This document shows, in pieces, positions 7,536 through 55,802 of a stretch of 64,000 nucleotides of DNA. Every line of letters begins with the position of its first letter. Position 1 is the stretch's first letter. Both the position numbers and the translations under genes were made by a program. The DNA is taken from sequence record AJ697969.1, one strand, 5' to 3'. Origin of the DNA: Pseudomonas phage EL. Below the pieces are notes generated by a model that saw only the letters and a list, made by a program, of their open reading frames with translations, ran no database searches and had not been told where the DNA came from.

Positions 7536-7556
7536 CCCGTAAACACCGTGTAAACA

Positions 7557-7599
7557 CCCTCCTACCTCCTTTACAGGGAGGTAGGAGGGTTTATTACGG
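7557..7599 (+). terminator. Rho-independent terminator (ccctcctacctcc/ggaggtaggaggg)
   Basis: 13-bp perfect stem followed by tttatta. Confidence 0.7.
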
Positions 7600-7612
7600 T
7601 ATAGCGTATTTT

Positions 7613-7629
7613 AAACCTAGATTATTGAT
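7613..7629 (+). promoter_or_regulatory. Phage promoter-like motif AAACCTAgATTATTgAT (15/17 to consensus)
   Basis: 25 nt upstream of the ATG at 7655. Member of a motif family seen at least 7 times. Confidence 0.5.
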
Positions 7630-7654
7630 GCGTTAAGCCACGAGGAATAAATCA

Positions 7655-29300: not shown

Positions 29301-29970
29301 CGGGCGTATTTCGTCGTTGTACAACGTCCGAGGCGAAGCCTTGGGGTTCAACAAAGCAGTCCTGACCTTCAGCCTTAATAAGACCACTCAGAAATTCTCC
29401 AGTGTTACACCCTTTAACAACGGGGAAGGGATGTCCGCGGCGTGGTGTGTGCAGAACCACGCCATTCCTAACGCCGGGTTAATTACCCAACAGCAAGGCT
29501 ACGTCTTTGAGGACACTGGCGGTGCAGGGTATGTAGGGAAGATCGGAACGAACACGTATTTGATTGGTTCCTGTTACCCGGAAGTGGGTTGGACGATTTT
29601 CTTCCAAGAAGAAGTCGAGATGATGATCAACGGTACCGTGTACAAAATGCCCGGTGGGTCTATCGACTTGAGGAATGTGTCCTCGAATCCTCGTAACAAA
29701 ACGTTCTACATCTATGCGACGGTTGAAGAGTCGGAAGGACGGTATATTGTCTCCGATGTTAAACTGCGGCGTTCCAGTGAGTTGCTGCATGTCGCAACCG
29801 CCGTGACGAACACCAACCAGATTGCCAGTATTACCCGGCAGAAAGTCTTTACCATCGGTGAGTTCCTATTAAGTTACACACGGACGGGAGGGATTATTCC
29901 GGTGAGTTCTGGTTTACCGCAGGATGAAGGTACGTTTAGCTTCTTGAAAGCCTCGGAACTTTTACCTTAA
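26389..29970 (+). CDS. Giant tail fiber/spike-like protein, paralog 2 (1193 aa)
   Basis: Same N- and C-terminal modules as paralog 1. Central region is divergent. Confidence 0.8.
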   Translation: MDPFKIVQFDIRGTRPENKITGEKMLIKDKTCPWLIPNGSPFFAEPGLFTLYDERGAEMTLNRDYWLEEAFIPFCEISGRNVCCFIRLSESIRQNNAFVTGDYQTIGAWFVPRNNLDEWLEKMREGKIPIEWEKVFGVPPTLPPEYHLHKADTEIGDWYELTFFLDTMANIYRSRDPELEDQSEVVINEAFTKLRNFRDAQMRRLVEHDKNYNAPHLQTKTNLNLGNLDNFATATPEQDKAGTADNLFSTTLGVKELVRGYTPDTSASMRSGIIAISRFGGTDYIPPGISGSFEGLGGVTPDCAAVLELNDNLVFIRAHYDGRTEGLYYTVVRNHLSLNPDVSFTGYKYQPPSLTAIGFVPNRVFTGSGRTIIMVTRDGTNQVYAALTNGTLDPSAHVFVKCNIDLAIQDLGTSVRLTEWSQIHTLGNWVYLFVTAMTEGQWGGWGHSRTRAYRAPLSAIKNGQPLTFSRVKVSLTNVPGALQSNVDYIEFTPAPPDGEFSTYGPITFAPYKAKKGVKGSQRRPLMFFSESSDIGPQYCSMHYFGMMFFTGNINGVDRVTGVYIDCSYDFNPETATFVVVKQPPVQTVDLSKIISKNSTASVHYAGISDVFFNISDHSSHLLLENKVIVGMSRLGLRVSFPGLFSRLQFNKNPNVTASGMLRDYMHADNANFSGMGVWETPSYPIKNGGRISAVGYELAGEYFWADSAVDHNRSFFYRKVSGEYAVRPGITNSNYPTLLARPISAEVYENRLDRNTSLISVTGSAAFLTAEGIEMGNSCFSVMGMNHFDDLASGVESDTTCPREFTFKAPKGNGIVLSCPRTFSRVMDTGDQTFTLKGESHWGVKRNVMDKLIQLIPATLREKWAVELMVINPISGKGFSRMNYALALVHTRDIEGGRYVVKSKLLACAPVIGNPVSGVYPIDDLTILDQTAFITTVNNSGAGDEWSDTEADVVACPQVSLYVDEATNTLSGRISSLYNVRGEALGFNKAVLTFSLNKTTQKFSSVTPFNNGEGMSAAWCVQNHAIPNAGLITQQQGYVFEDTGGAGYVGKIGTNTYLIGSCYPEVGWTIFFQEEVEMMINGTVYKMPGGSIDLRNVSSNPRNKTFYIYATVEESEGRYIVSDVKLRRSSELLHVATAVTNTNQIASITRQKVFTIGEFLLSYTRTGGIIPVSSGLPQDEGTFSFLKASELLP

Positions 29971-30019: not shown

Positions 30020-32890
30020 ATGATTATCCTTGGCGGGGAACCCCCTTTCATCGAAAACCCTGAACCCAGGTTCGGTGGAGTGATCTCCAAGCTCAATGAG
30101 ATGACCTACAAACTGGAAGCGTGTGTTCACAGCTACAATGAGGGGACTAAAGAAAAGATCCGGTTGTTCAACGCAAACCTGAATGATTTCATTAACCAAG
30201 CCATTGTCCCCATTGACGCCCACATCAATTCCCGGGGGGCAGTCCACGGTGAAACCAAACGGACGATTGGGTTGGGCCTTAAGGACAACTACCGGACGGC
30301 TACCCTGGCGGAACAACAGTCGCTAACGCCTGTGTTGGCGTATGTGACCCCTCACGGTGCTCGCGCTGCGGTTGTAGCCAACAACGTCGGTTATAACGGC
30401 GCGGATTATCAACCCAATGACGTGTTTCAATTCTCGTCGTTCTACAACCCGGATGAATACCCGGTAGTTCCTCCAACGGTGGTTCAACCCATTCGTTATT
30501 TTGGGTACTCCTTGAATGTCGGGATGATGATCAACAACGACCGTCTGGTGTTGTCTCCGGTTACCGATCCGTCTCGTTACCAACGGTACACCGCCTTCTT
30601 GTCTGGTTCTCTGGCGAACGCAGGGGGAACACAGTTCTCGGAGATTCAGAACCTCAACGCGTATTACACCGGACGGAATTGGAATGCGGTAGGAGGGTTT
30701 ACCAGTTCGGGCAAAGTGGCCTTCTTTAAACCCCTGGCTGAGAAGAAGATCTACGAGTTCAAGAACACCCTCCCATTAACCCCCAGTAGTGCTAACTTCC
30801 TGCTGTATCAAGGGTATAGCACGGCGGTCTATAAAGGACTGGGGGTTAGTTGGGAACGAGTCGGTACGGTTCTGACCCTAAAGCACTATTTCTTCAACGT
30901 GAACTTCCTGGAAACCGATCCCACTTTGGTGGAGCAGGTGACTGCGTCGTACACCGCCCGGTTTACTCAGATCAATAAAACACCGTATACCGGACCGGCT
31001 AACGGGAGTCATTCGTACGACATTAATGACTTTGTGACCCTGAGTGCAGGTCAGACCCTGGAGATGAATGGAGGACTGCAACCCACCACAGCCCTCTTCT
31101 GGAACATTCAAGACCGGGAAATCTACCTCTTTGTCGTTATTCCGGTGAATGTGGTCCAAGGGGGTATTCGTCGGCCGTATAACCTCTCCTTCGTGGAATC
31201 CATTGTCCCGGGTACCTTGGAGAATGGAGGAACGGCAACCTTTACCCAACTGGGTAATTTGGTCAAGGACATTATTCAACCGAATATGCTACCCACTGCT
31301 GACGCTAAATGGTTGCGGTACGCGAACACCTGGGATTTCAATAATCCGACCTGGTATCCTGGGATCGTTCTGAAGTCAGGGGAAGTGGTTAAAGCGGTCG
31401 CCACGAAGAACGGTCTACGGGTTAAGCGATTTACCACACCCCATAAAGGCTTGAGGGAATGGGTGTTGGGAGAACGGGCTGAAGTGGGGATGAATGAAGT
31501 TCGTACAGAGTTTTATCCTCCGTCACGCCATAGTCCTTTTGGGCCGGTTCCTGATCGCTTATTCCCCATTGAACACACCGCTGGTACCACGCGGTATCTG
31601 GCTTATTCCGTTGACAGTGAAACTGGGTTGTATGAGTGGAGTGAGTTGACCTGGTCGAATACCTCCATTGTGGGTGTAACCACGGGGAATAAGTTCGGTA
31701 TTGTTCCAGCGGATGTTGGGATTATTAATAGGGAGTTGACCCGTATCCCTAGGGCCATGGCGTCGTTTGCTAGCCTGCTGGTGGATGGAGTCAGTATCAA
31801 CGCCCTGTGTTTCACACCGGATAACCAGTATACCGGGTATGCTTCAATCGCCATGGCGAATGGACGAGTCCAGTTGGGCGCTGAGGTCAAACTCTCCCCA
31901 ACCAGCTTGATTACCCTGCAAGCCGCCAGTGGGGGTATTCTGGCTCGTGCAGCCATTGCGAACCCTCAAGTCAACAACGCCCTCAGGGAAAGTGTGATCA
32001 ACGTCTTTGCTGTCGCAGATAACTTCGCGTTGGTGGTGATTACCGATGGGATGTGTTACGCAGAGGCTGCTGTGGTTCCGTATACGGTGAGTGGTGGGGT
32101 CTTTAGGCTGAACTTCCCCTCCGCTACGGGCTTCGTTACTAAACCGGTTACCCCAGCCGGTATGGTCGTACCGGGCACGTACCGCTATTCCCATTCCGGT
32201 GATAACCCGTGGATGACCTACGTGGATGTCCAAGTGATTGAAACCCAACGGTATGAATGGGCGGTTGTGGTCAGTCGACCCTTTGGGGACCTCTACGGGG
32301 ATATCAGTTTCAAAATCACGGATTACCCGTTTACACCCACCTACACCGTAGGACGGGTCAATCCAGCGAAACTGTATACGGCGTCATCACCCTTTGATAC
32401 GGTGAACGAAGTTCACCCGCCTGTCTTGATCCCTCGGAAGGGAATCTACCAGTACGACCCTGCTAACACCGGCTACTCCACGAATCTGTTGGAGGTCGGC
32501 GGAGCGGGGGTGGTGGATCCGTACGACGTAAATGAAAGCGGCTGGGTGAGTATTCCTGCTCGATCCAGGGTGGTTATAAGGGGACGTGCGTATATCCTGG
32601 ATAAGGAATACCCCATTAAGGTCAACCCTACCGGAACGACGTACTGTTATTTGGTACGCCAAGGGGATGCGTTGGTAGGGTTGGGGTCTCCCGTACGCCG
32701 AGAGGTCAATAACTCGGAAGTCCTCTTTGGGATTGCAACGAACGGGATTCTTACCATCGATCATTCGTACATCGTGATGGGTGGTCATGTGGTGAGTTCT
32801 ACCCGTCGGGGTACGGCTATTCCCACCTTTGTGGATGACGGGAACTTGGGGGTTAACACCTTCTTTACCCGACGTGACATCATTGATTAA
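30020..32890 (+). CDS. Large fiber-like protein (956 aa) sharing only the C-terminal module
   Basis: C-terminal block ESGW...YCYLV...FGIATNG...STRRGTAIP aligns to the paralog 1/2 C-termini. N-terminus is different. Confidence 0.75.
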   Translation: MIILGGEPPFIENPEPRFGGVISKLNEMTYKLEACVHSYNEGTKEKIRLFNANLNDFINQAIVPIDAHINSRGAVHGETKRTIGLGLKDNYRTATLAEQQSLTPVLAYVTPHGARAAVVANNVGYNGADYQPNDVFQFSSFYNPDEYPVVPPTVVQPIRYFGYSLNVGMMINNDRLVLSPVTDPSRYQRYTAFLSGSLANAGGTQFSEIQNLNAYYTGRNWNAVGGFTSSGKVAFFKPLAEKKIYEFKNTLPLTPSSANFLLYQGYSTAVYKGLGVSWERVGTVLTLKHYFFNVNFLETDPTLVEQVTASYTARFTQINKTPYTGPANGSHSYDINDFVTLSAGQTLEMNGGLQPTTALFWNIQDREIYLFVVIPVNVVQGGIRRPYNLSFVESIVPGTLENGGTATFTQLGNLVKDIIQPNMLPTADAKWLRYANTWDFNNPTWYPGIVLKSGEVVKAVATKNGLRVKRFTTPHKGLREWVLGERAEVGMNEVRTEFYPPSRHSPFGPVPDRLFPIEHTAGTTRYLAYSVDSETGLYEWSELTWSNTSIVGVTTGNKFGIVPADVGIINRELTRIPRAMASFASLLVDGVSINALCFTPDNQYTGYASIAMANGRVQLGAEVKLSPTSLITLQAASGGILARAAIANPQVNNALRESVINVFAVADNFALVVITDGMCYAEAAVVPYTVSGGVFRLNFPSATGFVTKPVTPAGMVVPGTYRYSHSGDNPWMTYVDVQVIETQRYEWAVVVSRPFGDLYGDISFKITDYPFTPTYTVGRVNPAKLYTASSPFDTVNEVHPPVLIPRKGIYQYDPANTGYSTNLLEVGGAGVVDPYDVNESGWVSIPARSRVVIRGRAYILDKEYPIKVNPTGTTYCYLVRQGDALVGLGSPVRREVNNSEVLFGIATNGILTIDHSYIVMGGHVVSSTRRGTAIPTFVDDGNLGVNTFFTRRDIID

Positions 32891-34003: not shown

Positions 34004-36472
34004 ATGTTTATATTAACTAAATTGATCCTAGAGAATTACATTCCTCTGTTAAGCAGCGGAATCAAACGGGTAGAATTGGATCTGAATCATTTGGTTAACC
34101 TGTTGATCGCTCAGAACGGTGTCGGGAAAACCAGTATCCTCCGAGAAGCCAATCCCCTGGCTCCTGAAAATGCCAACTACCGCGGTATTGGACGTAAGTA
34201 CGTGGAGATTAAACGGGGATTGGACCATTTCGTTTTGGATTCTAAAACAGACTTAGGCAATGGTCACAGTTTCAAGTTTAACGGGAAAGAGTTAAACAAG
34301 AATGGAACCTTTACGGAACAGAAGGACTTGGTATGGATCCATTTCCGGTTAGACAGTACTATCAGCCGTATTCTGTCCGGGCTTAAACCCAACAGTCTGT
34401 TTTCAGCGATGCCAGTGGCTCAACGTAAAGACTTCTTTATGTTCATCTACCCGAATGACACGAGTTACGCCTTAGGGGTCTTTAACAAGCTTAAGACAGA
34501 ACGTCGTGAACTGGCGGCTGCAATTAAGAACCAAGTCATGCGGTATACGGAAGAGAGTGCTAAACTCAAGCAGATCACCGAATGTGGTCCGGAAGAGCTG
34601 GAACGTCGAGTTAAGACGATTGAGACTGAACTGAGGGAGTCCTTGTTGGTACGAGGGGGTTTGGAGCAGGTGAAAGTAGACCCTGAGCTCCAAAGTAAGA
34701 TTGATACCTTCAAACGTCTGGCTGAGCAGATGACATTGAACCGAGTCAGCGGGTTCTTTGAGACTGAGGCTGAACTCAGACAGGGAATCGAAACAGTTCA
34801 AGCTATCTTGAGTGTTCACGAAGGCCAAGCCACTGCCATTCAAATGGTTATCAGTGAGCACGTAGGGGTTTTGGAAGGAATGGAGGAGATCAAAGAAGAT
34901 CCCTTTGTCTTCCATCATCAAGCGGAACAACTCAAGGTGGAACTCACTGCTCTCCGGGAAGAATACAAACAACATGGGGTGCTATTGGGTAATTACCCTT
35001 TGTTCAACGATGACGCCTATGACTTTACCGGTTTGGAATTGGTGTACGAGGCCTTGGTGGCTCAATTGCGTCGGGTGGTGAATGCCAGTACTCCTGAGTT
35101 AACCGGAGGGCGGTATAAAGAGTATACCGTCAAACTGGAGCAAACCCGTAATCAACTGAGGGCCTCTAAGAATGAGCTGGACACTCTCACCCACCAGTTG
35201 AAACATTATGATGCCATGGAGCTGGTGACTTGTCCGGAATGTACCCATGAATTCAAGGTCGGGATTACCGCGAATGAACTGCGTGCAGCACGGGTTAAAG
35301 CGGAAGCCCTTAAGTTGAGTGTGACTAAACTGGAGCAGGATGTTGAAACCCTGGAAAGATTAGTCGAACAGGACAGTGAGTGGTACCACAGCATGTTAGC
35401 CCTACATCAGTTCTGCCGGATGAATGGTGATGTTAAGTGCCTTCCTGAACTGATTAAAGCATACGACATGGGTAAGTCGGATACCAACATCCTTTTAAAC
35501 GCCCTCAGGGCCTTCATGGGGCGTTTTAACTGTAAGAGACGTATCGATGCCCTACTGGAAGAAGAAAAGCTCTTAAACACGCGTATAGGGCTGTTACAGA
35601 AGGATTCGGTATTAGACATCGCTACCTACTTAAAGAGTCTGGAACACGACCTGGAAGTGGAGAACAGTCGTATTGGTTTCTACCGTCGGCGTGTTGAACA
35701 GCTTATAAGGAACCTAAAGACCATCCACACCTACACCCGAGACCTGGAGACCCTCCGCTGTCTTAAAGACGAGATCTTCAAAGGGTTGGAACAGCAAGGG
35801 TTGGTGGAACTGCGTAAACGGGTTGATGAACGGATTCATTTGCTAACGGATGAGAAGGATGAATACCTCGCCTCCATTATCAAAAGCCGTTCGTTGAGTG
35901 CGGTTGTCGCGTCTATTTCGGAAGACATTGATCGTTTAAAACGCCGTCTGAAGATTGTGGATGGGTTAATGAACGGTCTGTGTCCGAATAAGGGGTTGAT
36001 CGGTAAGCTGATGACGGATTTCATCAAGACCTATTGTGCCAATATGAATGCGGTGATTCAATCAGTGTGGAACACCACCCTGTTTGTTAAACCCTGCCAT
36101 AAGGACAACGGGGATTTGAACTGGAAGTTCCCGGTGGTTACCGGTGATGATGAGCCCACGCCAGATGTCAGTGATTGCAGTTTGGGTGAAGCAGGTATCA
36201 TTGACTTTGCGTTCCGTTATGTGGCCATTCGTTACCACGGTAACTTCCCTCTGATGCTGGATGAGGTGGGTACCACCTTCGATGAAATCAAACGCGGTCG
36301 TTTCTTCAATTTCATTCACGAGTTAACCACCCAGAAGGACGCTAAACAACTCTTCATGATTAGCCATTACATTACTCAATACGGAATGTTCACCAACCCG
36401 AATGTAATTGCGATGTGTTATGAAGGGTTGAGTTTACCGGGTGAAGTCAATCAACACAGTGTTATCAATTAA
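34004..36472 (+). CDS. Rad50/SbcC-like SMC ATPase with zinc hook
   Basis: N-terminal L.LENY + Walker A AQNGVGKTS. Long coiled coil with central CPEC hook. C-terminal Walker B/D-loop LMLDEVGTTFDE and H-loop ISHY. Confidence 0.75.
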   Translation: MFILTKLILENYIPLLSSGIKRVELDLNHLVNLLIAQNGVGKTSILREANPLAPENANYRGIGRKYVEIKRGLDHFVLDSKTDLGNGHSFKFNGKELNKNGTFTEQKDLVWIHFRLDSTISRILSGLKPNSLFSAMPVAQRKDFFMFIYPNDTSYALGVFNKLKTERRELAAAIKNQVMRYTEESAKLKQITECGPEELERRVKTIETELRESLLVRGGLEQVKVDPELQSKIDTFKRLAEQMTLNRVSGFFETEAELRQGIETVQAILSVHEGQATAIQMVISEHVGVLEGMEEIKEDPFVFHHQAEQLKVELTALREEYKQHGVLLGNYPLFNDDAYDFTGLELVYEALVAQLRRVVNASTPELTGGRYKEYTVKLEQTRNQLRASKNELDTLTHQLKHYDAMELVTCPECTHEFKVGITANELRAARVKAEALKLSVTKLEQDVETLERLVEQDSEWYHSMLALHQFCRMNGDVKCLPELIKAYDMGKSDTNILLNALRAFMGRFNCKRRIDALLEEEKLLNTRIGLLQKDSVLDIATYLKSLEHDLEVENSRIGFYRRRVEQLIRNLKTIHTYTRDLETLRCLKDEIFKGLEQQGLVELRKRVDERIHLLTDEKDEYLASIIKSRSLSAVVASISEDIDRLKRRLKIVDGLMNGLCPNKGLIGKLMTDFIKTYCANMNAVIQSVWNTTLFVKPCHKDNGDLNWKFPVVTGDDEPTPDVSDCSLGEAGIIDFAFRYVAIRYHGNFPLMLDEVGTTFDEIKRGRFFNFIHELTTQKDAKQLFMISHYITQYGMFTNPNVIAMCYEGLSLPGEVNQHSVIN

Positions 36473-36476
36473 TTTT

Positions 36477-36493
36477 AAACCTACATTATTCAT
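36477..36493 (+). promoter_or_regulatory. Promoter-like motif AAACCTACATTATTCAT (perfect)
   Basis: Identical 17-mer also at 46918. Lies 18 nt upstream of ATG 36512. Confidence 0.55.
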
Positions 36494-36511
36494 TTGCAAG
36501 GAATACCTCTA

Positions 36512-36805
36512 ATGAACGTTCAACTCCCACGATCGGTTACCCTGGATGCCTATCTTCAACCGGACGGTACACTTATGCTGGGGCCGGGTCAGGCTAAAGT
36601 AACCATTAACTACCATTCGGATCCTCAAGAATCCATTAATGCGTGCATTGTCTTTGGAGGGGCAATGCAAGCGATTGTGACTTTTGATGAAACCGGTCAG
36701 ACCCCTGTGAGTTATACGCTGTTGAATCCAGGGGGTGATTACACCGTTGAGCAGTCGGTTCTTAACATCTTGTCCTATTTCGGAGTCAGTGCTCCGATGA
36801 ACTAG
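36512..36805 (+). CDS. Hypothetical protein (98 aa)
   Basis: ATG start downstream of the motif (the track uses an earlier TTG). Confidence 0.45.
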   Translation: MNVQLPRSVTLDAYLQPDGTLMLGPGQAKVTINYHSDPQESINACIVFGGAMQAIVTFDETGQTPVSYTLLNPGGDYTVEQSVLNILSYFGVSAPMN

Positions 36806-36817
36806 GAGTCATGAGTC

Positions 36818-37258
36818 ATGAACAAAGCTGAAGTGATAGAACGGTACCGCGAACTGGTCGAAGACCTCACCCTCCCGCCGCATCAGGTGATCCTGTCGGC
36901 GGGTGCCGCCTTGGTGGTAATGGGCATCCGAGAGGAAACAAGTGACCTCGATGTGGATGTCCCTACCAGCGTGTTCAACTGGGCGAGTAATAAGTTCGGG
37001 GTTATCGAGAACGAAACCGTGAATAAACGGGTTCAATACACCCCCCTGGTCGATCTCCATGAATACGACGAGAACACGGGAGTGGTGTGTATTGAGGGGG
37101 TGTGGTTGTACAGCCCTACGGAGTTACTGAAACAGAAACACTGGCTCACGAAGCTGGCTGATCGAACGGACGTTAAGACCCAACAGGATCACCGTGATAT
37201 CCGCCAACTGGAAATTCTCACTCAGTCTCAACCATTCACTGCACGCGCATTGTTGTAA
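36818..37258 (+). CDS. Minimal nucleotidyltransferase (MNT)-fold protein, paralog 1
   Basis: hG[GS]x(9-13)DhD-like motif SAGAALVVMGIREETSDLDVDV. Paralogous to the next gene. Confidence 0.5.
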   Translation: MNKAEVIERYRELVEDLTLPPHQVILSAGAALVVMGIREETSDLDVDVPTSVFNWASNKFGVIENETVNKRVQYTPLVDLHEYDENTGVVCIEGVWLYSPTELLKQKHWLTKLADRTDVKTQQDHRDIRQLEILTQSQPFTARALL

Positions 37259-37272
37259 GGTTAGGTTACGGT

Positions 37273-37767
37273 ATGTTTTACAGTCAATTGGAAGTGGTAG
37301 AAGCCGTTCAACGGTTCTCTGAGGCTCATAACACCCCATTGGATAAGATCGCTATTGGCGGAGGTGGGGCTATCATGCTCATGGGGGGTCGTGAAACCAC
37401 CTATGATTTGAACATTTGGGTGGAGAGTCCGTTCTTTGAACGCATTGCTGAAACCCAGAACGCTCTCCTCAGTCCTATGAGAGACAATGTGTTCCACATT
37501 GAAACGGTTATTGATTCCATGGATCAAACCGATCACGTCACCACACGTCGCCATTACTGGGTGCGTAAACGTAACCTCTATTTCCCCACTGTTCCTGTTA
37601 AGCTGGATCAATGTCCTGAAGTCTACATCTTCGATGCGATGTCACTGTTGATTCAGAAACGAGGGAGCTACAGTCGCCCTGAACGAGGACTCCGTCGTAA
37701 ACAGGATTACAGCGACATCTGTTTCTTGAATGCGTTGCTAAAGGAAGAACACAAAGTCAGGGCTTAA
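37273..37767 (+). CDS. Minimal nucleotidyltransferase (MNT)-fold protein, paralog 2
   Basis: IGGGGAIMLMGGRETTYDLNIWV aligns with paralog 1. Confidence 0.5.
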   Translation: MFYSQLEVVEAVQRFSEAHNTPLDKIAIGGGGAIMLMGGRETTYDLNIWVESPFFERIAETQNALLSPMRDNVFHIETVIDSMDQTDHVTTRRHYWVRKRNLYFPTVPVKLDQCPEVYIFDAMSLLIQKRGSYSRPERGLRRKQDYSDICFLNALLKEEHKVRA

Positions 37768-37777
37768 CCTTAGGACA

Positions 37778-37820
37778 GTACCAGGGGATCACTCCCCTGG
37801 TACGTCTTCCTCCTTATACG
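37778..37820 (+). terminator. Putative terminator hairpin (gtaccagggga/tcccctggtac)
   Basis: 11-bp stem. Weak T tail. Confidence 0.4.
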
Positions 37821-37835
37821 GTTTAGGAGATTACA

Positions 37836-39806
37836 ATGGGTAAACACTCACCTGTTGAACGGATTAAATACCTCCATGAACAACTGACGTATCACGCCCA
37901 TCTCTATTTCGTCGAGAACCGGAACGAGATCTCTGATGAAGCGTATGATGTGTTGGAGCAAGAACTCAATGAGTTGTACGACCGATACCCTGAAATAGCG
38001 GCTAAGTTCGATTTCTATAATCGTCCCGTTCCTATTCATGAACCCTCCGGGGAAACCATTCAACCCGTACGGTTCGAGGAACCCATGCTCAGCTTGAAGA
38101 AAGCCTTGAGTGTGGAGGAGGCGGATACATTCCTGTTAAAGTTCCCGGATGGTACAAACTTCTTTTACGAAGAGAAACTGGATGGGTTGGCCCTGGAGTT
38201 GGTGTATGAACAGGGACAACTGGTCAGTATGAGTACCCGGGGGTCTGGATTAGTCGGGGAAGATGTGACGCATTCCATAGTTCTCTTCGATGAAGCTACA
38301 CTTCCTCGTACCTTAAGGACACTCCCTGACCGCCATAAACCCCAGGGGGATCGATTGGTTATTCGGGGTGAAGGGTACATCAGTCTGGAACGCTTCGATT
38401 CTCTTAATGAAACAGGGGGTAAACGGTCCAATCCCCGTAATGCCGTGAGTGGGTGGGTGCGGTCCCTCCCTCAGAACCAACGGGAGGATATCCGAGGAAC
38501 GCTGTACTTCGCGGCGTATTACGCCAGTGATCGATTGGGGACGAAAGCCTATTCCGAATTGAGGCAGGTTCTCTTAGGCCTAGGGTTTGGTGTTCCTGAA
38601 TCCAGGGATTGGATTGCGGTCTCAGAGAACCGGAGGGGGAACATTCGTCCGGTGGATGGGATTGTGATTAAAGTCGACAAGTTCAAGGAACAAGACGCCA
38701 GTGGAAATGGGAGTAAATTCCCTCACTGGGCGATTGCTTACAAGTTCCCTGCGGAAGAAGCGTTGGCCCAGGTTGAGGGCTGTATCTGGAATACCTCTCG
38801 GTTTGGTCGGGTAGTACCGGTGGTCCAGTATACCCCTGTAACGATCCAAGGGGTTATCTGTCAGTCTGCGTCGTTAGATAACTACGGTTCGTTTATGGAC
38901 TTAGGGTTATCAATCGGGGATCGGATTGTTATTACCCGGAACAACGATGTGATCCCTCGGTTGAACCGGGTGGAGGAGTGTGGGGAAGGAGACCTCCTAG
39001 AAGCGCCTACAAGCTGCCCTAGCTGCGATTCTCTCCTAGAGGTAGTGGTGGGTAGGGACAGTTCCGAACTCGTCTGTAATAACGTCGCAGAGTGCCCTGC
39101 GCAGATCGTTATGCGGTGCGTAACGACGTTCGATAAGTTTGGACTGGATGTAGACGGTTTAGGACCCGTTAAGGTCAGTGAATTGGTTGAGAAAGGATGG
39201 GTTAAGCAACCAGCTGATATACTTACCCTTCCGGAAGGCATTAAGGATCAATGCCTCACCCCGACGACTCGAAGAGGTTTGGAGCGTGTCCTTCAGGAAC
39301 CCGTTCCTTTACATCGCTTCTTAAAGGCGTTGGGTATCCCGGATATTGGGATCACTTTGGCTAAACGCCTAGCCAACGCCATCCCTGAAGGGAAGATCGA
39401 AGAATCCCTTACCAATCCTAAGTTCCTACAAAGTGTACGAGGGGTTTCAGTGGGGATTGCTTACCGGGTCGTGAACGCGTTCGACTCCCCGGTCTTTAAG
39501 GACAACTTCCACGCCCTAAAAGGTTTGTTAACTCTCCAGTACACCGGAACGCAGGACGACTGCATTAAAGTCTGTATTACCGGCAACATTGGACCTTCCC
39601 GAGGAGAACTCTGTAACCTGTTCGCTAAGGAAGGGATTGAACTCAGTGATCGGCTTACCCAGGACTGTGCCTTCGTCATTGTGGGTGATCGTCCTGGTAA
39701 ATCGAAACTGTTAATTGCAACCGAATCGGGTATACCTATGCTAATTGCAAAGGATTATTCGAGCATTGGCTCCCTCATTCAGTTCATTAAAGGACACCGA
39801 GAATGA
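37836..39806 (+). CDS. ligA: NAD-dependent DNA ligase
   Basis: Domain Ia motif AYD.LE.EL..L....PE. PMLSL. KxDG adenylation motif EEKLDGLA. NPRNAVSG. WAIAYKFPAEE. Zn finger CPSC...C..V.ECPAQ. C-terminal BRCT-like region. Confidence 0.93.
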   Translation: MGKHSPVERIKYLHEQLTYHAHLYFVENRNEISDEAYDVLEQELNELYDRYPEIAAKFDFYNRPVPIHEPSGETIQPVRFEEPMLSLKKALSVEEADTFLLKFPDGTNFFYEEKLDGLALELVYEQGQLVSMSTRGSGLVGEDVTHSIVLFDEATLPRTLRTLPDRHKPQGDRLVIRGEGYISLERFDSLNETGGKRSNPRNAVSGWVRSLPQNQREDIRGTLYFAAYYASDRLGTKAYSELRQVLLGLGFGVPESRDWIAVSENRRGNIRPVDGIVIKVDKFKEQDASGNGSKFPHWAIAYKFPAEEALAQVEGCIWNTSRFGRVVPVVQYTPVTIQGVICQSASLDNYGSFMDLGLSIGDRIVITRNNDVIPRLNRVEECGEGDLLEAPTSCPSCDSLLEVVVGRDSSELVCNNVAECPAQIVMRCVTTFDKFGLDVDGLGPVKVSELVEKGWVKQPADILTLPEGIKDQCLTPTTRRGLERVLQEPVPLHRFLKALGIPDIGITLAKRLANAIPEGKIEESLTNPKFLQSVRGVSVGIAYRVVNAFDSPVFKDNFHALKGLLTLQYTGTQDDCIKVCITGNIGPSRGELCNLFAKEGIELSDRLTQDCAFVIVGDRPGKSKLLIATESGIPMLIAKDYSSIGSLIQFIKGHRE

Positions 39807-41110
39807 CTGTTAAAACTGACACCAACGACCAACAACACACTACCACCGACCCGGTAGTAGCAATGAAACTCAAGAAGGCCGAGAAGGCTCTGAAACACTC
39901 CAAGGAACTGGGTAAGAAGATGAAACACGACAAGGAACAGTTGGATAAGAAATCCATTACCCAACCCACTGAGAATAAAGAGTACCGTTCCGCCCCTGAG
40001 CCTTCTAAGCCCAAGGTGGTGGTTGACGGTAAGGAACTGGTGGCTCTCGATACCAAGCCGTACGGCGAATGGATCCGTTCCAAAGAAGGACACGATATTT
40101 TTGGGAATACATTCTGGTCAGTAGGTGTAACCGCGGAAATCGCCCTCTTCTCTCATTTCAAGACAACTTTTTGCGGAGTTGAACTCGATCTCTTGGTCGA
40201 CTCCTATTCTGAAGTTACGCTGGAAACCCCTACTGACGTTCCTTTCCTTAACGTCAGTAAGCGTAAGGGGAGTGCTGTGGTAGTCAACTCGGTGGTTAAT
40301 CGTTGTGAGTTTGAAGGGGAGAATTGTCTTCTGAATGTCGAGATTAACGACTGTGTGGTTAACAAGAGCAAGGTCGTTCGTACACGATCGACCGAATTGC
40401 GACCAATCGACGAACTGATCGACTTCCCAAAAAGAGCGGATGTATTTAGACGAGGGGTCGATCAACGCGCCCGGTACAACGACTGCCGTTTCATCGAATC
40501 CGAGATTAAAGATTCTCCCATCAATGGCAAGGGCTTAGTGAAAGAGTCGTATGTGGATCGTACCCACATTACCGCTGGGAAGTTTGCCATCGTTAAATCG
40601 CATCTTACCACCACCACCCTCACCGCATCCATGCTGTCTCTCTCGAAAGCTTACCTTCATGGTTGTTACTTGAGCGTTTCTGAAACGCTGATCCTTCGCA
40701 ACTTCACCCTCCGGAATAAGACGCTTTACATGAGGTCACTCTACGCGCCTAATAAACTGGGTCTTACGGAGATCGAACTTCCGTTCCATCCTCAAAATCT
40801 TATTCTGCACCGCACCTCAAAAACACAGTATGTAATCTCCATCCGCTCGGGTGGTTCGTCCGGCCTTGAACTGGGGAGCGACGTAACTTGGGAAGAACTC
40901 AGTGAAAAACTGGGTGAACTCTTGATAAAAACCCCGATGGTCAATAACGAGATCTCTGAAGACGGACTCCTCTTCAAAAGCATCTTGAATTATGTCCTGA
41001 AGTCGGTGATTTCTCGGATGAAGATCATCAAGTTGATGGACGATGTGATGGCTGTTAACCGTAGTATCACATCAGATTTCGAGGATCCTGAGTCCGTCCC
41101 GTATTGTTAG
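39803..41110 (+). CDS. Hypothetical protein (435 aa) with Lys-rich N-terminus
   Basis: Long ORF. KLKKAEKALKHSKELGKKMKHDKEQLDKK. Possible beta-helical repeats. Confidence 0.6.
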   Translation: MTVKTDTNDQQHTTTDPVVAMKLKKAEKALKHSKELGKKMKHDKEQLDKKSITQPTENKEYRSAPEPSKPKVVVDGKELVALDTKPYGEWIRSKEGHDIFGNTFWSVGVTAEIALFSHFKTTFCGVELDLLVDSYSEVTLETPTDVPFLNVSKRKGSAVVVNSVVNRCEFEGENCLLNVEINDCVVNKSKVVRTRSTELRPIDELIDFPKRADVFRRGVDQRARYNDCRFIESEIKDSPINGKGLVKESYVDRTHITAGKFAIVKSHLTTTTLTASMLSLSKAYLHGCYLSVSETLILRNFTLRNKTLYMRSLYAPNKLGLTEIELPFHPQNLILHRTSKTQYVISIRSGGSSGLELGSDVTWEELSEKLGELLIKTPMVNNEISEDGLLFKSILNYVLKSVISRMKIIKLMDDVMAVNRSITSDFEDPESVPYC

Positions 41111-41119
41111 TACACAACA

Positions 41120-41159
41120 CCTTACTCCCCAGGTAATCCTGGGGAGTAAGGGTTTAATT
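41120..41159 (+). terminator. Terminator (ccttactccccagg/cctggggagtaagg)
   Basis: 14-bp perfect stem then gtttaatt. Confidence 0.65.
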
Positions 41160-41190
41160 GCCTACTTACCTGTAAAAGGGAGGTTAACGA

Positions 41191-41682
41191 ATGTCCAAAA
41201 CAAAGAGGAATGACCGATATGTCATTTATACCGATGGGAGCGCGTTAGGGAATCCAGGTCCGGGCGGTTACGGTGTTTACGCTAAATACAAAGGGGAAGA
41301 ATTCTCCCTGAGTAAAGGGTATTACAAAACCACTAACAACCGTCAAGAACTCATGAGTGTGATTGCAGCACTGGAAGAGTTTGGTCCTAATATCAAAGTG
41401 GACATCTTCACTGACTCCCAATACGTCATTAAGTGTGCTACTAAATGGATGAGAGGATGGATACGGAACAACTGGATGGGGTATAACTCTGGGCAACCGG
41501 TTAAGAACCGCGATCTGTTGGAAGTCCTCAATGAACTCTTGAAGAAGAATAAGGTAAAGTTCCATTGGGTTAAAGGTCACTCTGGGGATGAAGGGAATGA
41601 AAAGGCAGACCAATTAGCCAAGGATGCTGCCAATAATCCGGAAGCCCACGATATGGAATACATGAAAGTCTTAGGGTTCTAA
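41191..41682 (+). CDS. rnhA: Ribonuclease HI
   Basis: IYTDGSALGNPGPGGYG, TTNNRQELM, TDSQYV, WVKGHSGDEGNEKADQLA. Near-canonical RNase HI catalytic motifs. Confidence 0.93.
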   Translation: MSKTKRNDRYVIYTDGSALGNPGPGGYGVYAKYKGEEFSLSKGYYKTTNNRQELMSVIAALEEFGPNIKVDIFTDSQYVIKCATKWMRGWIRNNWMGYNSGQPVKNRDLLEVLNELLKKNKVKFHWVKGHSGDEGNEKADQLAKDAANNPEAHDMEYMKVLGF

Positions 41683-41707
41683 TCAATCAACCGTGGAGAT
41701 TAACACT

Positions 41708-42946
41708 ATGAAAAGCTTTATTGATGTATCAGTAGTAGAAGATGGGGGTAAACAGTTCCTCTTCGGTATTACTGCGAATCAAAAGACAGGACGACCCGAA
41801 GTCGTAGGATATACCGATCCTGATTATTTCAGAGAGGGTGCTGACCGTGTGTTTGAACAGCTTATCCGGGAAGAACAACGAAAGGAAGCGGATATTAAAC
41901 TCCAGTTAGCCTTTATTAAGGTGGTCAAGGAACATCCCGGTAAACAACTGCAACTCACGCTTTGCTACAGCGCAAATGGACCGTCAGCTGGAGAATTTTA
42001 TTGGGTGGAGGATCGGTGTTATACGGCTGACGGAGTGTCCTTCCTATCGAATGCTCCGGTGTGTATCTATCATAAGAACTGTCTGGATGGTACTGCGGCA
42101 GCTTGGGCGGTAAGACGTGCACTCCCCTTGGTTGAATTGGTGGCTATGAGCTATCATGATGATCCGTACGAACTCTTTGGCCCGGGGTTGGAGTATCTAC
42201 AAGGGAGAATGGTCTATTGTGTTGATTTCAGTTTTAAGAAAGCAGTTGTAGAAGCGATTGCTAATTTACCGGATACAGGCTTGTTGATCTTGGATCATCA
42301 CGAGAGTGCTCAACGGGAACTGGGTGAACTCGTCGTTGGTTATTCCGGGAAATCAACGCTGGGTGATCGGGTTGAGATTATCATCGATATGACACGTTCA
42401 GGCGCTAAGTTGACGTACGACTACTTCCACCCTCAACAACCGACGCCTCCGGGTATTCTGGCGGTACAAGATCGGGATCTGTGGAAATGGGGGTACGAAG
42501 GCAGTAAGGAATGGACCGCAGCTGCCTTTGGGTATCCCCTCACCGTTGAGAGTTTCGATAAACTGATTCATCGGGATTACCAAGACGTGGTAGAAGAAGG
42601 TCGTACCGTCCTTCGTAAGCAGGAATTGGATGTCGAGAAACTGCTCCCGAGTGCGCGGCCTTACACGTTGGAGGGGTACAACTGCTTGATTGTTAATGCC
42701 AGTTATTTCCACGCCAGTGATGTAGGGGATAAACTGAAGGGTCGAGACGGTATTGACTTTGTAGTCACTTACATGGATGGTAAGGATAGCCGGATCTTCT
42801 CTCTACGGGGTAAGGATAAAGTGAACCTAGCGGAAGTGGCTGAACGTTTTGGAGGAGGCGGCCACCCTAACGCAGCAGGGTTCACCTTGAGCTTCAACGA
42901 TCCTCGTTTCTCCCAGTCACACCTGTTACTATATTCCGGTACTTAA
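41708..42946 (+). CDS. DHH-DHHA1 family phosphoesterase (NrnA/RecJ-like)
   Basis: DHH motif LILDHHES. DHHA1 motif FGGGGHPNAAGF. Confidence 0.75.
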   Translation: MKSFIDVSVVEDGGKQFLFGITANQKTGRPEVVGYTDPDYFREGADRVFEQLIREEQRKEADIKLQLAFIKVVKEHPGKQLQLTLCYSANGPSAGEFYWVEDRCYTADGVSFLSNAPVCIYHKNCLDGTAAAWAVRRALPLVELVAMSYHDDPYELFGPGLEYLQGRMVYCVDFSFKKAVVEAIANLPDTGLLILDHHESAQRELGELVVGYSGKSTLGDRVEIIIDMTRSGAKLTYDYFHPQQPTPPGILAVQDRDLWKWGYEGSKEWTAAAFGYPLTVESFDKLIHRDYQDVVEEGRTVLRKQELDVEKLLPSARPYTLEGYNCLIVNASYFHASDVGDKLKGRDGIDFVVTYMDGKDSRIFSLRGKDKVNLAEVAERFGGGGHPNAAGFTLSFNDPRFSQSHLLLYSGT

Positions 42947-43114
42947 ATGGACACTCACACACTGTTCTTAATCATTGACCTGGTAGGTAAATCCGTTTTT
43001 ATTGGTGACTTAGTGACTCGCGTGGACGACCATCGACTTATGAAGTCTATCCGATATTTGGAGAATCGGAAGGTGATTAAAACAGTTACGGTTACCCAAT
43101 GTTTACGTAACTAA
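42947..43114 (+). CDS. Small hypothetical protein (55 aa)
   Basis: ATG overlaps the DHH stop (taaatg). Below the ORF-track cutoff. Confidence 0.3.
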   Translation: MDTHTLFLIIDLVGKSVFIGDLVTRVDDHRLMKSIRYLENRKVIKTVTVTQCLRN

Positions 43115-43134
43115 CAGGTATTCCATTTGATGGG

Positions 43135-43183
43135 GGGTGGTTAGTATACAGGCTAACCACCCTGTTCTCTCTATTTTTTTTTT
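43135..43183 (+). terminator. Rho-independent terminator (gggtggttag/ctaaccaccc) + T10
   Basis: 10-bp stem followed by a run of ten T. Confidence 0.7.
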
Positions 43184-43196
43184 CGGGATAAGTGGA

Positions 43197-43622
43197 ATGA
43201 ATAATTACGGGTATGTGGATGTGTCCTTGGTAGGACCTGAAGTAGAGGAAATCTTTGGCTTGCTCTTGGAGTGTGGTATTGCACCGGCTGCGGAGTATAA
43301 CCTGCATTGTACCCTGATGTACGATGAACAGGCAGAAGAACCGCTGGTGAAACTGAATCCTGATGCGAAATTCACCGCCTACGTGACAGGGATTGATGTA
43401 CTGGGAGATGGATTGGTGTTTAACCTTACCAGCAAAGACCTCGCTGATGAACACCGCAGGTTGAAAGACGGTGGATATACCCATTCCTTTGATGCCTTCT
43501 TACCGCACATGTCTGTCACCTATGACTTCGATGAATACGACATGTTGAAAGTGAAGCAAGCTTTCGCAACCTGGGGTGGTCGACAACTCACCTTCAGTAA
43601 AGAATCGTTCGGAACCAAATAA
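43197..43622 (+). CDS. 2H phosphoesterase superfamily protein (LigT/Acb1-like)
   Basis: Two H-h-T/S-h motifs (LHCTLMY and PHMSVTY) spaced about 70 aa apart in a 141-aa protein. Confidence 0.65.
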   Translation: MNNYGYVDVSLVGPEVEEIFGLLLECGIAPAAEYNLHCTLMYDEQAEEPLVKLNPDAKFTAYVTGIDVLGDGLVFNLTSKDLADEHRRLKDGGYTHSFDAFLPHMSVTYDFDEYDMLKVKQAFATWGGRQLTFSKESFGTK

Positions 43623-43631
43623 GACCCGATA

Positions 43632-43667
43632 CTACCCCTACCCTTGACCGGGTAGGGGTAGGTTTAA
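43632..43667 (+). terminator. Terminator (ctacccctaccc/gggtaggggtag)
   Basis: 12-bp stem then gtttaa. Confidence 0.5.
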
Positions 43668-43698
43668 GGGAGTAAAAAATTAAGTTAAGGAATGAAAC

Positions 43699-43715
43699 AA
43701 ACCTACATTACCAGG
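43699..43715 (+). promoter_or_regulatory. Promoter-like motif AAACCTACATTAccagg (12/17)
   Basis: 70 nt upstream of ATG 43785. Confidence 0.45.
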
Positions 43716-43784
43716 GTGAATAGACAACGGGATTGTTTGCAGGTAAGTGACTTTCCCTTCTAAAGACAGAAAAGGGTTATAAAG

Positions 43785-44999: not shown

Positions 45000-45057
45000 G
45001 CAATACGGAATAACAGCGAACATGATTAAACTCAGTTAATCGACTGACGGTGCTCGA

Positions 45058-45106
45058 CTACGAGGGGTTATTCCCTCGTAGTTGGGTATTCGTTCTCTAT
45101 TTTTTA
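45058..45106 (+). terminator. Terminator (ctacgaggg/ccctcgtag) + T-run
   Basis: 9-bp perfect stem then tctctatttttt. Confidence 0.6.
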
Positions 45107-45108
45107 AT

Positions 45109-45125
45109 ACACCTACATCATTCTT
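45109..45125 (+). promoter_or_regulatory. Promoter-like motif acaCCTACATcATTCtT (14/17)
   Basis: Immediately after the terminator. Confidence 0.4.
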
Positions 45126-45163
45126 GTGTAATGAGAGTGTTTATTTTTGTTAGAGGTAAGGTT

Positions 45164-45484: not shown

Positions 45485-45490
45485 GCGAGG

Positions 45491-46099: not shown

Positions 46100-46213
46100 G
46101 CATCACAGTCTGCGGAACAACATCTTCTCGCAGGGCGAGGATTACCTCAAAGCCCGCAAATCCACCACTCAGGGTCTTGTTACCTTGAACATCAGCTGTA
46201 AGGAGCTTAAGTA

Positions 46214-46588: not shown

Positions 46589-46671
46589 TCTTACTTAGGG
46601 GTAGGCAACTACCCCTTCCCCGATCCTGGGTTATTCTCTGCTGGATCGGAATAATAAACGGTGAGGATGCC

Positions 46672-46836
46672 ATGAAACCTAAAGTCGAACACCCCAAGGT
46701 TCCCTATACCCCCTTCTTAACCTTTCCCGAATACCTTGTTGCTACCGATGTGAAGCTACAGGTTAAGGTGTTTAAGAAGGAATTGGAACGGATTAAGGAC
46801 GATCCCACTCACGAACTGAATACCTTGGTCCTGTAA
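46672..46836 (+). CDS. Small hypothetical protein (54 aa)
   Basis: ggtgagga RBS then ATG. Followed by a terminator. Confidence 0.35.
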   Translation: MKPKVEHPKVPYTPFLTFPEYLVATDVKLQVKVFKKELERIKDDPTHELNTLVL

Positions 46837-46845
46837 CCCGCTTAA

Positions 46846-46896
46846 CCACCCCCACTCTGTAAAAGGAGTTGGGGTGGCGGGTGTTTATTTCTTTTA
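46846..46896 (+). terminator. Terminator (ccacccccactc/gagttggggtgg, 1 mismatch) + T-run
   Basis: Followed by gtgtttatttcttttag. Confidence 0.55.
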
Positions 46897-46917
46897 GTTT
46901 AAAACGTATTTATTCTC

Positions 46918-46934
46918 AAACCTACATTATTCAT
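46918..46934 (+). promoter_or_regulatory. Promoter-like motif AAACCTACATTATTCAT (perfect)
   Basis: 48 nt upstream of ATG 46983. Identical to the 36477 copy. Confidence 0.55.
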
Positions 46935-46982
46935 ATGAATTGAGCAATATGATTATTGTTTAACCCAAAGGAGGAACACTTC

Positions 46983-47387: not shown

Positions 47388-47401
47388 GAACGGGTATTAC
47401 G

Positions 47402-48090: not shown

Positions 48091-48196
48091 CGCTTCGTAT
48101 GGGAAATCCCAAGTCACACAGTTCTTGCTCAGACGGGCGCTGTTGAATAAAACGAAGTAACGTTCTGGACTAAAGAGAATAAGGAGTTCTGCGTTC

Positions 48197-49781: not shown

Positions 49782-49791
49782 GGAGAACGGT

Positions 49792-52430: not shown

Positions 52431-53093
52431 ATGTCAAGACAATCGTTGTTGGAATATGGAAGAGGGTGGTTATGCGACCAGGGTGGTGAGGGTAAAGAGG
52501 AATGGACCGGGGGTGACGCGGTGTTCTACTCCATGAGTGTCAGTCCTTTAGCTTATCCCACCACCACCTTTTGGACGGGTCGTTTCAATATCCACATGGA
52601 GAACATCACTGTTCGGTTACATTCGCACGATAATGATCCTGAATTGGTGTTGTTCTTCAATAAGCTCAATCTACTGGAGCAGGGCGTACGGGAGTATTGC
52701 AAGGCGTTCAGAAAGGTCCTCAATAACCCGAAGAAACCCCTAAAGGAACCCGTCTATAAGCGACAGTGGCTCAACCCTGAGAACATTGAAGCGCCCTTTA
52801 CGGGGTATTATTTCTATTGCATCGATCAGGATAAGGCAGGCCGGTTCTGCGTTGGGGATTGCCACCGGACCATTGTGATGTGGATGGACATTCACCACAA
52901 TGACGGGAGGGTCTTTAACAAAGCGTTGTTAGAAGTTCAACTCAGCGCTCTCCAATGCCTGGTGACCTATTTGAAGGAGGCTCAGGTTAAGATCAAGAGT
53001 CTTCGTAAGCAATACAAGGTCTTAGGTTGGGATAAACCTCAGGAGCTCCAGAGTGACACGTCCTCTGAGGACGTTCTTCCCGATCCCCAGTAG
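52431..53093 (+). CDS. Hypothetical protein
   Basis: ATG after the gaggtgg RBS. The track start overlaps the terminator. Confidence 0.5.
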   Translation: MSRQSLLEYGRGWLCDQGGEGKEEWTGGDAVFYSMSVSPLAYPTTTFWTGRFNIHMENITVRLHSHDNDPELVLFFNKLNLLEQGVREYCKAFRKVLNNPKKPLKEPVYKRQWLNPENIEAPFTGYYFYCIDQDKAGRFCVGDCHRTIVMWMDIHHNDGRVFNKALLEVQLSALQCLVTYLKEAQVKIKSLRKQYKVLGWDKPQELQSDTSSEDVLPDPQ

Positions 53094-53101
53094 AAATTAA
53101 T

Positions 53102-53118
53102 AAACCTATATTACTCAG
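53102..53118 (+). promoter_or_regulatory. Promoter-like motif AAACCTAtATTAcTCAg (14/17)
   Basis: 39 nt upstream of the chaperonin ATG. Confidence 0.5.
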
Positions 53119-53157
53119 GTGTAATGCAATTAGGTATGGTTTAACAGGAGTACGAAG

Positions 53158-55633: not shown

Positions 55634-55675
55634 AACTACCAAGTGGGCTAGCCCACTTGGTAGTTTACCTCTCTT
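55634..55675 (+). terminator. Terminator (actaccaagtgggc/gcccacttggtagt)
   Basis: 14-bp stem. Weak T tail. Confidence 0.5.
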
Positions 55676-55704
55676 CGTACCTCATTTCAATTCCAGTGAA
55701 TTTC

Positions 55705-55720
55705 AAATCTACATCATCAG
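55705..55720 (+). promoter_or_regulatory. Degenerate promoter-like motif AAAtCTACATcATcag
   Basis: Weaker member of the family. Confidence 0.3.
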
Positions 55721-55802
55721 TGTGAGCCAGGGGCAATAAAAGTTCACGGATGAATGAATTCTCTTGCAACTGGTGCTTTAAATGTCATTAGGAATATTCA
55801 CC

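Follow-up and report, generated by a model that had tools for sequence, protein, structure and literature searches.

Predicted early promoters of Pseudomonas phage EL resemble those read by the virion RNA polymerase in phiKZ-related jumbo phages

The early promoters of phage phiKZ were reportedly assigned to the virion RNA polymerase by Ceyssens in 2014. They number 28-32 sites and are read by the virion polymerase that is injected into the cell (PMC8244752; PMC10914365; PMC13282480), and each consists of an extended -10 with a T-rich part upstream of -19 (PMC8244752). The early consensus of phage AR9 is AAATATATATTAT-(6N)-G+1, and in phiKZ and phiR1-37 transcription also starts 6 nt past the element (PMC5312081). 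According to a review, such motifs precede the presumed early operons in every jumbo phage that encodes RNA polymerase, and they proved to be early promoters wherever they were tested (PMC7598289). For EL itself, a predicted promoter, WTTTYAAACCTACATTATY, is given in Table 2 of Lewis et al. 2020 (PMC7058600), which credits it to Hertveldt et al. 2005 (J Mol Biol 354:536); the same table gives the OBP, 201phi2-1, N1M2 and phiKZ versions. In the literature searched we found neither a mapped transcription start for EL or any Elvirus nor data on timing or on the effect of rifampicin, and a string search for CCTACATTA returned unrelated papers only.

The DNA analysed here, hereafter the window, is a stretch of 64,000 nt of Pseudomonas phage EL (AJ697969.1). 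A sequence-only reading of it had noticed a 17-mer, AAACCTACATTATTCAT, occurring identically at 36477 and 46918, with variants at 7613, 45109, 53102, 43699 and 55705, and every one of these copies was confirmed. The copy at 7613 has 2 mismatches and those at 45109 and 53102 have 3 each; when up to 3 mismatches are allowed, the window contains 5 matches where 0.20 are expected, the top count in 100 shuffles being 2. Copies 43699 and 55705 agree at 12/17 positions each, diverge chiefly in the non-conserved 3' end of the 17-mer and keep the 12-nt core AAAyCTACATyA intact. Scanning the window with a weight matrix yielded these seven + strand sites and no others, with scores of 28.8-38.3 bits. Moreover, an unbiased direct-repeat search recovered 5/7 copies as a family (D1) with a 28-nt unit ending in TG, which came first among the families listed and alone among them exceeded three copies. 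Scans of the window against Rfam and for tRNAs returned nothing related to the motif. Taking together the analyses described below, we consider it very likely that all seven copies serve an EL-type jumbo phage as early promoters, read by a multisubunit RNA polymerase packaged in the virion.

The repeat is real, but its limits had been misplaced, as the conserved unit is about 30 nt long and shifted with respect to the 17-mer. In an alignment of all 22 copies that the full genome of the related phage MIZ-Pa99 contains, the unit is made of a T-tract, then AAACCTAYATTAYY, then N4-TG. Counting from the motif start, A is found at -10 in 19/22 copies and G at -9 in 13/22; the T-tract occupies -4 to -2 (T in 14-19/22 sites) and is followed by C/T at -1 (TTTC/TTTT), an arrangement seen likewise in RisingSun and phiKZ. 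The core reads A-A-A-C/T-C-T-A-Y-A-T-T-A-Y-Y. Positions C5, A7, A9, T10 and A12 are invariant in the 22 MIZ-Pa99 sites, A1 and T6 are kept in 21/22, and the TAYATTAY block is present at 7/7 sites of the window and 22/22 of MIZ-Pa99. After the core come four degenerate positions and then T19 (16/22) and G20 (21/22), G being at position 20 in all seven window sites. Within the 17-mer, positions 13-17 are degenerate: 13 and 14 are Y in the core, and 15-17 are not conserved. The spacing of 6 nt to +1 was adopted from PMC5312081 and reviews, and as this is the spacing of AR9, phiKZ and phiR1-37, its application to the motif makes G20 the predicted start. The functional element is predicted to span about -30 to +1.

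Some sites carry a distinct upstream half (tTTAACTTnCAGTTnTnaTC-ARGTCTATATwA…GGTGAATA), which is common to MIZ-Pa99 and the Erwinia phage RisingSun. This sub-class hints at two early-promoter sub-types, and two upstream variants in phiKZ point the same way.

To compare the element with the known promoters, matrices of EL, RisingSun and phiKZ were anchored on TAYATTA, and the mean column correlation was calculated by offset. At offset 0 it was 0.45 for EL/phiKZ, 0.83 for EL/RisingSun and 0.61 for RisingSun/phiKZ, against at most 0.25 at any other offset (at most 0.22 for EL/phiKZ). The phiKZ element was represented by 14 copies in the first 150 kb of that genome, all on the + strand, with the pattern tattcAAA..aTTTaAAcag-TATATTAC-N5-TG. 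In EL and phiKZ alike there is a T-rich tract, a TAYATTAY block near -10 and N5-TG, in register and on the leading strand only. However, the EL/RisingSun block is less AT-rich, has an invariant C 5' of TAYATTA (AAACC-TAYATTA) and allows Y at its position 3, whereas phiKZ has ..ACAG-TATATTAC; a further difference lies in the -30 element upstream, and the phiKZ starts were mapped experimentally while those of EL are predicted from sequence. With a phiKZ-trained matrix the window sites score weakly (best 8.6 bits), yet 36477 and 53102 rank first. Early promoters of phiKZ are also found at three places syntenic with the EL type, namely before gp54, before gp68 and after the capsid gene gp120.

The promoters of AR9 and phiR1-37 resemble the EL element in having a TATATTAT-like block (AR9: TATATTAT-N6-G+1) and the 6-nt spacing to a conserved G start, and their recognition is attributed to the virion polymerase and is independent of protein synthesis. 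They belong to phages with uracil-containing DNA and no nucleus, and differ by a purely A/T upstream half and the absence of the AAACC block. In the predicted early promoters of OBP and N1M2 (…TTTCARRYAKATATTATYWAAGTG; Cornelissen 2012, Lewis 2020), the layout TTTC-ARRY-…ATATTAY-N-GTG is shared, the number of copies per genome is similar (31 in N1M2) and the copies lie before early operons and polymerase subunit genes, but the core is AKATATTAT, not CTAYATTAY. As for the EL consensus itself, the version in the table of Lewis et al. is the same sequence as ours, comprising the T-tract and the motif through position 14. The copy at 36477 (ATTTTAAACCTACATTATT) matches it exactly, the one at 46918 (TTCTCAAACCTACATTATT) is off by one base in the T-tract, and the remaining five are close variants. 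Since both the consensus (PMC7058600) and the promoter class (PMC7598289) were already published, the EL promoter motif is already known and the present finding is a correct rediscovery, the value of which lies in confirmation and refinement. The additions are modest: the TG(+1) at positions 19-20, a weak AG near -29, the full list of sites in a related genome, the predicted starts and the conservation of position across genera.

The 4 kb around the motif are 97.0-98.4% identical to eight EL-group Pseudomonas phages (phiRU, MIZ-Pa99, HHBS8_1, GXNNE2 and others), one of which is filed as Chimalliviridae; Elvirus. By this similarity the source is an EL-like, phiKZ-related (Chimalliviridae) jumbo phage of Elvirus. 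The annotated genome of MIZ-Pa99 (209,813 bp), in which the window corresponds to approximately 94.7-158.7 kb, was used as the whole-genome reference. It encodes a nuclear shell protein, the tubulin PhuZ and a GroEL-like chaperonin, and its annotation has 11 RNA polymerase beta-type CDS and, under the name 'polymerase', one further CDS, the homologue of gp123. In tblastn, the MIZ-Pa99 polymerase genes match phiKZ gp55, gp71, gp74 and gp123 (non-virion) and gp80 (virion), and the EL-type genome has homologues of both sets of split beta/beta' RNA polymerase genes, the virion and the non-virion one.

A motif search over the whole MIZ-Pa99 genome, which the sequence-only reading had proposed as a check, found the enrichment expected of promoters. 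Each of the 22 sites is on the + strand and reaches 20 bits or more, the interval between 8 and 20 bits being empty, while first-order Markov shuffled genomes gave 0.5 sites at 12 bits or more. CDS of 60 aa or longer leave 7.7% of the genome uncovered, and 19 of the 22 sites are located in this remainder (binomial P about 1e-18 (8e-19)); all 22 are co-oriented with a downstream gene. The intergenic 7-mers that are strongly enriched consist only of T-runs, terminator-stem words and words of this motif; a second class of intergenic motif (middle or late promoters), sought by this 7-mer enrichment, did not emerge.

Three individual sites of MIZ-Pa99 deserve comment. The copy at 56148 (+; 22 bits, ACACCTACATGA) is antisense inside a 462-aa CDS of the - strand, about 800 nt from the next + strand gene; it may match by chance, act as an antisense promoter or reflect an annotation error. 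The weakest copy (41005-41025, 20 bits), before a homologue of non-virion polymerase beta, has A and not G at the predicted start; it sits 20 nt from the annotated ATG, which the predicted start abuts, and the gene may have a misplaced start codon or a leaderless transcript. The copy at 164410 seemed to be an orphan, as the record has a - strand ORF of 94 aa in this region (164391-164838). What accounts for it is a + strand ORF of 118 aa, missing from the annotation, that lies 53 nt past the predicted start and has an Arc-like ribbon-helix-helix domain (PHROG E = 2e-13 to 4e-15); the 94-aa ORF is probably a mis-annotation.

The genes that follow the sites in MIZ-Pa99 include those of PhuZ and GroEL, a gp14 homologue, a gp68 homologue (517 aa, phrog_3209) and the gp71-74 homologues (beta/beta' at 41-46.5 kb). 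One site precedes the nuclear shell gene (phrog_4795), the next gene after the shell being the gp55 homologue, and another precedes the gene pair located just after the major capsid gene, which ends in the gp123 homologue ('polymerase'). In tblastn, genes downstream of the sites match phiKZ gp39, gp55, gp71, gp74 and gp123. Pairwise BLASTP of the EL-like shell protein against phiKZ gp54 (E = 1.2) and of the gp68-like protein against gp68 (E = 0.34) was not significant, so PHROG family membership was used instead: the 517-aa protein, RisingSun gp39 and phiKZ gp68 form one family (phrog_3209) and the shell proteins another (phrog_4795), with full-length and strong memberships for all three phages. 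From the site list, the tblastn matches and the PHROG assignments together, it follows that every non-virion polymerase subunit gene stands behind the motif.

This placement bears on the alternative in which the copies are middle or late promoters of the non-virion polymerase, which we consider very improbable. DNA ligase, RNase H and GroEL, found downstream of the motif, are helpers of replication and assembly that would count as middle genes in other phages, and in phiKZ the gene of gp54 is transcribed from an early as well as a middle start (PMC8244752), making mixed use possible. However, the non-virion subunits must be made before the enzyme exists, and all their genes follow the motif. 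As some non-virion polymerase genes of 201phi2-1 have no early promoter of their own (PMC11512511), this argument from gene content is supportive and not decisive. The form of the element also argues against this alternative. Known non-virion promoters differ from the motif: the late ones of phiKZ have only TATG at the start, the middle ones of that phage carry a weak motif, AT-rich/TACT, around -22 to -24, and the late ones of AR9 are AACA-N6-TA/G. In the window, TATG at the predicted start is seen at 46918 only and, unlike in the phiKZ late promoters, the upstream conservation is strong at all seven sites; moreover, the motif is in register with the early class.

The close relatives, at 97-98% identity, show substitutions in the motif confined to the degenerate positions 11, 14 and 16, but these are too few for a real test of constraint, and RisingSun was used instead. 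Beyond the EL group, the nearest GroEL homologues are those of the Erwinia phages RisingSun and Joad (40% identity). In RisingSun (235 kb) the EL-trained matrix found at least 25 sites, all on the + strand, with the pattern aTTTTc-ANNYCTAYATTAYTAnnGTGaat, and at least 10 of them are at orthologous positions. They precede the tubulin, shell, gp68-like and non-virion beta genes and GroEL (window 53102), and are also found after the capsid gene, after the SbcC-like gene (window 36477) and at several other syntenic junctions. Conversely, a matrix built from RisingSun alone places the seven window sites as its top seven + strand matches (13.3-32.9 bits), the next + strand match having 3.9 bits and the best of the - strand 10.8 bits. 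Upstream of GroEL in Klebsiella phage Miami and Vibrio phage Aphrodite1 we found TATATCAC/TATATTAC-N5-TG (TAYATYAC-N5-TG), and in Edwardsiella phage pEt-SU the element is present at neighbouring junctions. The genome paper of RisingSun describes a motif search and does not report the element (PMC6034870).

An element common to phages of Pseudomonas, Erwinia, Klebsiella and Vibrio, which matches the host-polymerase-independent promoters of phiKZ and AR9, does not speak for the reading that the Pseudomonas RNA polymerase uses it as a sigma-70 promoter (or one of another host sigma) whose extended -10 is unusual. It is true that TACATTAT is loosely like a -10 hexamer with an A/T-rich tract before it, and that two copies overlap weak sigma-70-like matches (9/12) on the - strand (36499-36472 and 7636-7608). 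However, no such match, with TTGACA-like and TATAAT-like hexamers spaced 16-18 nt, was called on the + strand at any of the seven sites, which agrees with the original claim that the motif is unlike sigma70, and C5, the AAACC block and G20 have no counterpart in sigma-70 promoters. Sigma-70-like matches are in addition below the shuffled expectation in both regions compared (6 vs 19.8 +/- 4.0 in 36001-56000; 7 vs 11.5 +/- 3.0 in 1-12000). We consider recognition by the host enzyme highly improbable. The depletion of sigma-70-like matches would fit an avoidance of host-polymerase promoters. The claimed dissimilarity to the T4 late motif also stands, as TATAAATA is absent from all seven sites.

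In the window the seven copies are all intergenic and lie ahead of + strand ORFs with Shine-Dalgarno sequences. The distance from the motif end to a plausible start codon is 18-81 nt, practically the range of 18-80 nt first proposed, and the 5' UTRs counted from the predicted starts would be 16-79 nt. The copies had also been said to come often directly after a terminator hairpin. Indeed, a strong G+C-rich hairpin of 12-22 pairs precedes five copies and a 9-pair hairpin precedes 53102, all 14-39 nt upstream; no strong hairpin was found upstream of 36477. A terminator sequence motif shared between phiKZ and 201phi2-1 has been reported. In the EL-like phage and RisingSun, the hairpins have the words CCTACC/GGTAGG and CTCC/GGAG in common (window 7556-7590, 43632-43661, 54842-54876 and 41120-41151), and terminator-stem words rank among the most enriched intergenic 7-mers. 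The features with their coordinates are collected in Table 1.

Table 1. Copies of the element in the window, the features next to them, and sites of the sub-class in two genomes (promoters and starts are predictions)
Feature	Position	Strand	Details
Promoter copy 1	7605..7632	+	cgTATTTT-AAACCTAGATTA-ttgatgc-G; predicted start G 7632
ORF after copy 1	7655-8191		
phiKZ gp14 homologue, next after copy 1	8378-9136		phrog_16056
Promoter copy 2	36469..36496	+	index copy; predicted start G 36496
Operon after copy 2	36512-36805, 36818-37258, 37273-37767, 37836-39806, 39803-41110		37836-39806 is NAD-dependent DNA ligase
Promoter copy 3	43691..43718	+	predicted start G 43718
First gene after copy 3	43785-44999		404 aa
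Promoter copy 4	45101..45128	+	ACACCTACATCA; predicted start G 45128
Gene after copy 4	from 45164		likely start GTG, preceded by AGAGGTAAGG
Promoter copy 5	46910..46937	+	exact 17-mer; predicted start G 46937
First gene after copy 5	46983-47387		
Promoter copy 6	53094..53121	+	predicted start G 53121
GroEL-like chaperonin gene, after copy 6	53158-54834		
Promoter copy 7	55697..55724	+	AAATCTACATCA; predicted start G 55724
First gene after copy 7	55782 or 55803 to 56363		
Terminator-like hairpin	7556..7590	+	16 pairs, CCTACC/GGTAGG stem; 22 nt before copy 1
Terminator-like hairpin	43632..43661	+	12 pairs; 37 nt before copy 3
Terminator-like hairpin	45046..45094	+	19-22 pairs, then T-run; 14 nt before copy 4
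Interrupted hairpin	46836..46882	+	then GTTTATTTCTTTT; upstream of copy 5
Shorter hairpin	53055..53076	+	9 pairs; 25 nt before copy 6
Hairpin	55634..55665	+	14 pairs; 39 nt before copy 7
Sub-class sites, MIZ-Pa99	94661, 162588, 163121, 164410, 205070		
Sub-class sites, RisingSun	26587, 88208, 125134, 142687		

It is hardly credible that the copies are no promoters at all and instead serve a DNA-binding protein of the phage as operators, or mark boundaries of recombination or of cassettes which, as the promoter-stem-loop repeats of T4-type phages do, spread together with mobile early genes. The copies do lie at cassette boundaries beside hairpins, with three within 3.2 kb (43699, 45109 and 46918), an extra gene beside one module in GXNNE2 and an Arc-like DNA-binding protein encoded by the phage, but the repeat is about 28 nt long and non-palindromic with flanks that lack similarity, its orientation is strictly that of the downstream gene at a distance fitting a 5' UTR, its positions are kept between genera in syntenic core regions and not in variable ones alone, and a boundary role would add to a promoter function and not replace it. 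The T4-type repeats are longer cassettes, made of promoter and stem-loop, which resemble one another from copy to copy and stand beside variable genes, whereas here similarity between copies covers about 28 nt and the hairpins vary in sequence and distance from the motif. Longer mobile repeats made of hairpin plus promoter were considered and rejected, as similarity ends at about 28 nt.

With regard to the individual units of the window, the 17-mer of copy 2 begins 5 nt past the stop of an SbcC-like gene (34004-36472), and in RisingSun the orthologous promoter (113973) is found directly after the SbcC-like gene of that phage. The claim that the downstream genes include the GroEL-like chaperonin is also right, copy 53102 being the one that precedes it. 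After copy 4, the ATG implied by the annotation of the relative (45131) would leave only 3 nt between the predicted transcription start and the start codon; the GTG at 45164 is more plausible. The first ORF after copy 1 (7655-8191, +; 178 aa, phrog_24977, E = 1e-62) is unannotated in MIZ-Pa99, where only a 46-aa ORF is listed. A tRNA-Thr gene (anticodon CGT; 6946-7021, +) is located within a run of small + strand genes, upstream of a hairpin at 7165-7201 and of copy 1. GXNNE2 has an additional gene of 249 aa between the 404-aa gene and the hairpin-promoter module matching window 45109 (piece 30033-30782 of the GXNNE2 record, window approximately 45000-45046), which is gene-content variation at a cassette boundary. 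Three neighbouring huge genes of the + strand (22779-26333, 26389-29970 and 30020-32890; 1184, 1193 and 956 aa) have a family of internal repeats in common (D2) and resemble paralogues; in relatives they are annotated as minor tail proteins.

The motif, its statistics and placement, its conservation across genera and its match in register to mapped promoters are observations of this work, and from them we infer where transcription starts, that it is early and which polymerase carries it out. In the mechanism that we propose, each unit would comprise a weak AG near -29/-28, the T-tract at about -23 to -20, AAACCTAYATTAYY from -19 to -6, then a conserved (T)G, the G of which would be +1. By homology with phiKZ, AR9 and phiR1-37, it would be recognized by a multisubunit RNA polymerase packaged in the virion and injected with the DNA, and this virion enzyme would initiate 6 nt past the TAYATTAY block, requiring neither host polymerase nor new protein synthesis. 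The promoters would open co-oriented early units, in the window those of small host-takeover genes, the gp14-like gene, the DNA ligase/RNase H cluster and the GroEL-like chaperonin, and elsewhere in the genome those of the nuclear shell, the tubulin and all non-virion polymerase subunits. A terminator hairpin would insulate most units from upstream transcription. A phage-encoded RNA polymerase or sigma-like factor had been suggested at first. Homology, register and placement support a phage-specific promoter and a phage polymerase, which can be refined to the multisubunit enzyme of the virion; the part about a sigma-like factor is not retained, as we know of none for the virion polymerase.

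EL and RisingSun keep the universal TAYATTAY-N6-G core, and have AAACC where phiKZ and AR9 show ACAG or A/T-rich sequence. It is conceivable, though rather unlikely, that the AAACC block (-19 to -15, with the invariant C) is a second, lineage-specific recognition element, read by a domain of the polymerase that has diverged or by a specificity factor that is co-injected. If that is true, the co-variation of promoter and polymerase across Elvirus, Risingsunvirus, Miamivirus, OBP-like and phiKZ-like phages would reveal the recognition determinant.

The predicted starts and operon boundaries may be of use in a group of phages that are therapeutic candidates, as may the corrections of annotation (wrong-strand and missed ORFs, wrong start codons), and the elements could serve as orthogonal promoter parts. 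For the phage itself, these promoters would be the switch that starts the infection: the injected virion polymerase, with no need of the host enzyme, would use them to express the host-takeover genes as well as the nuclear shell, the tubulin spindle and the second polymerase.
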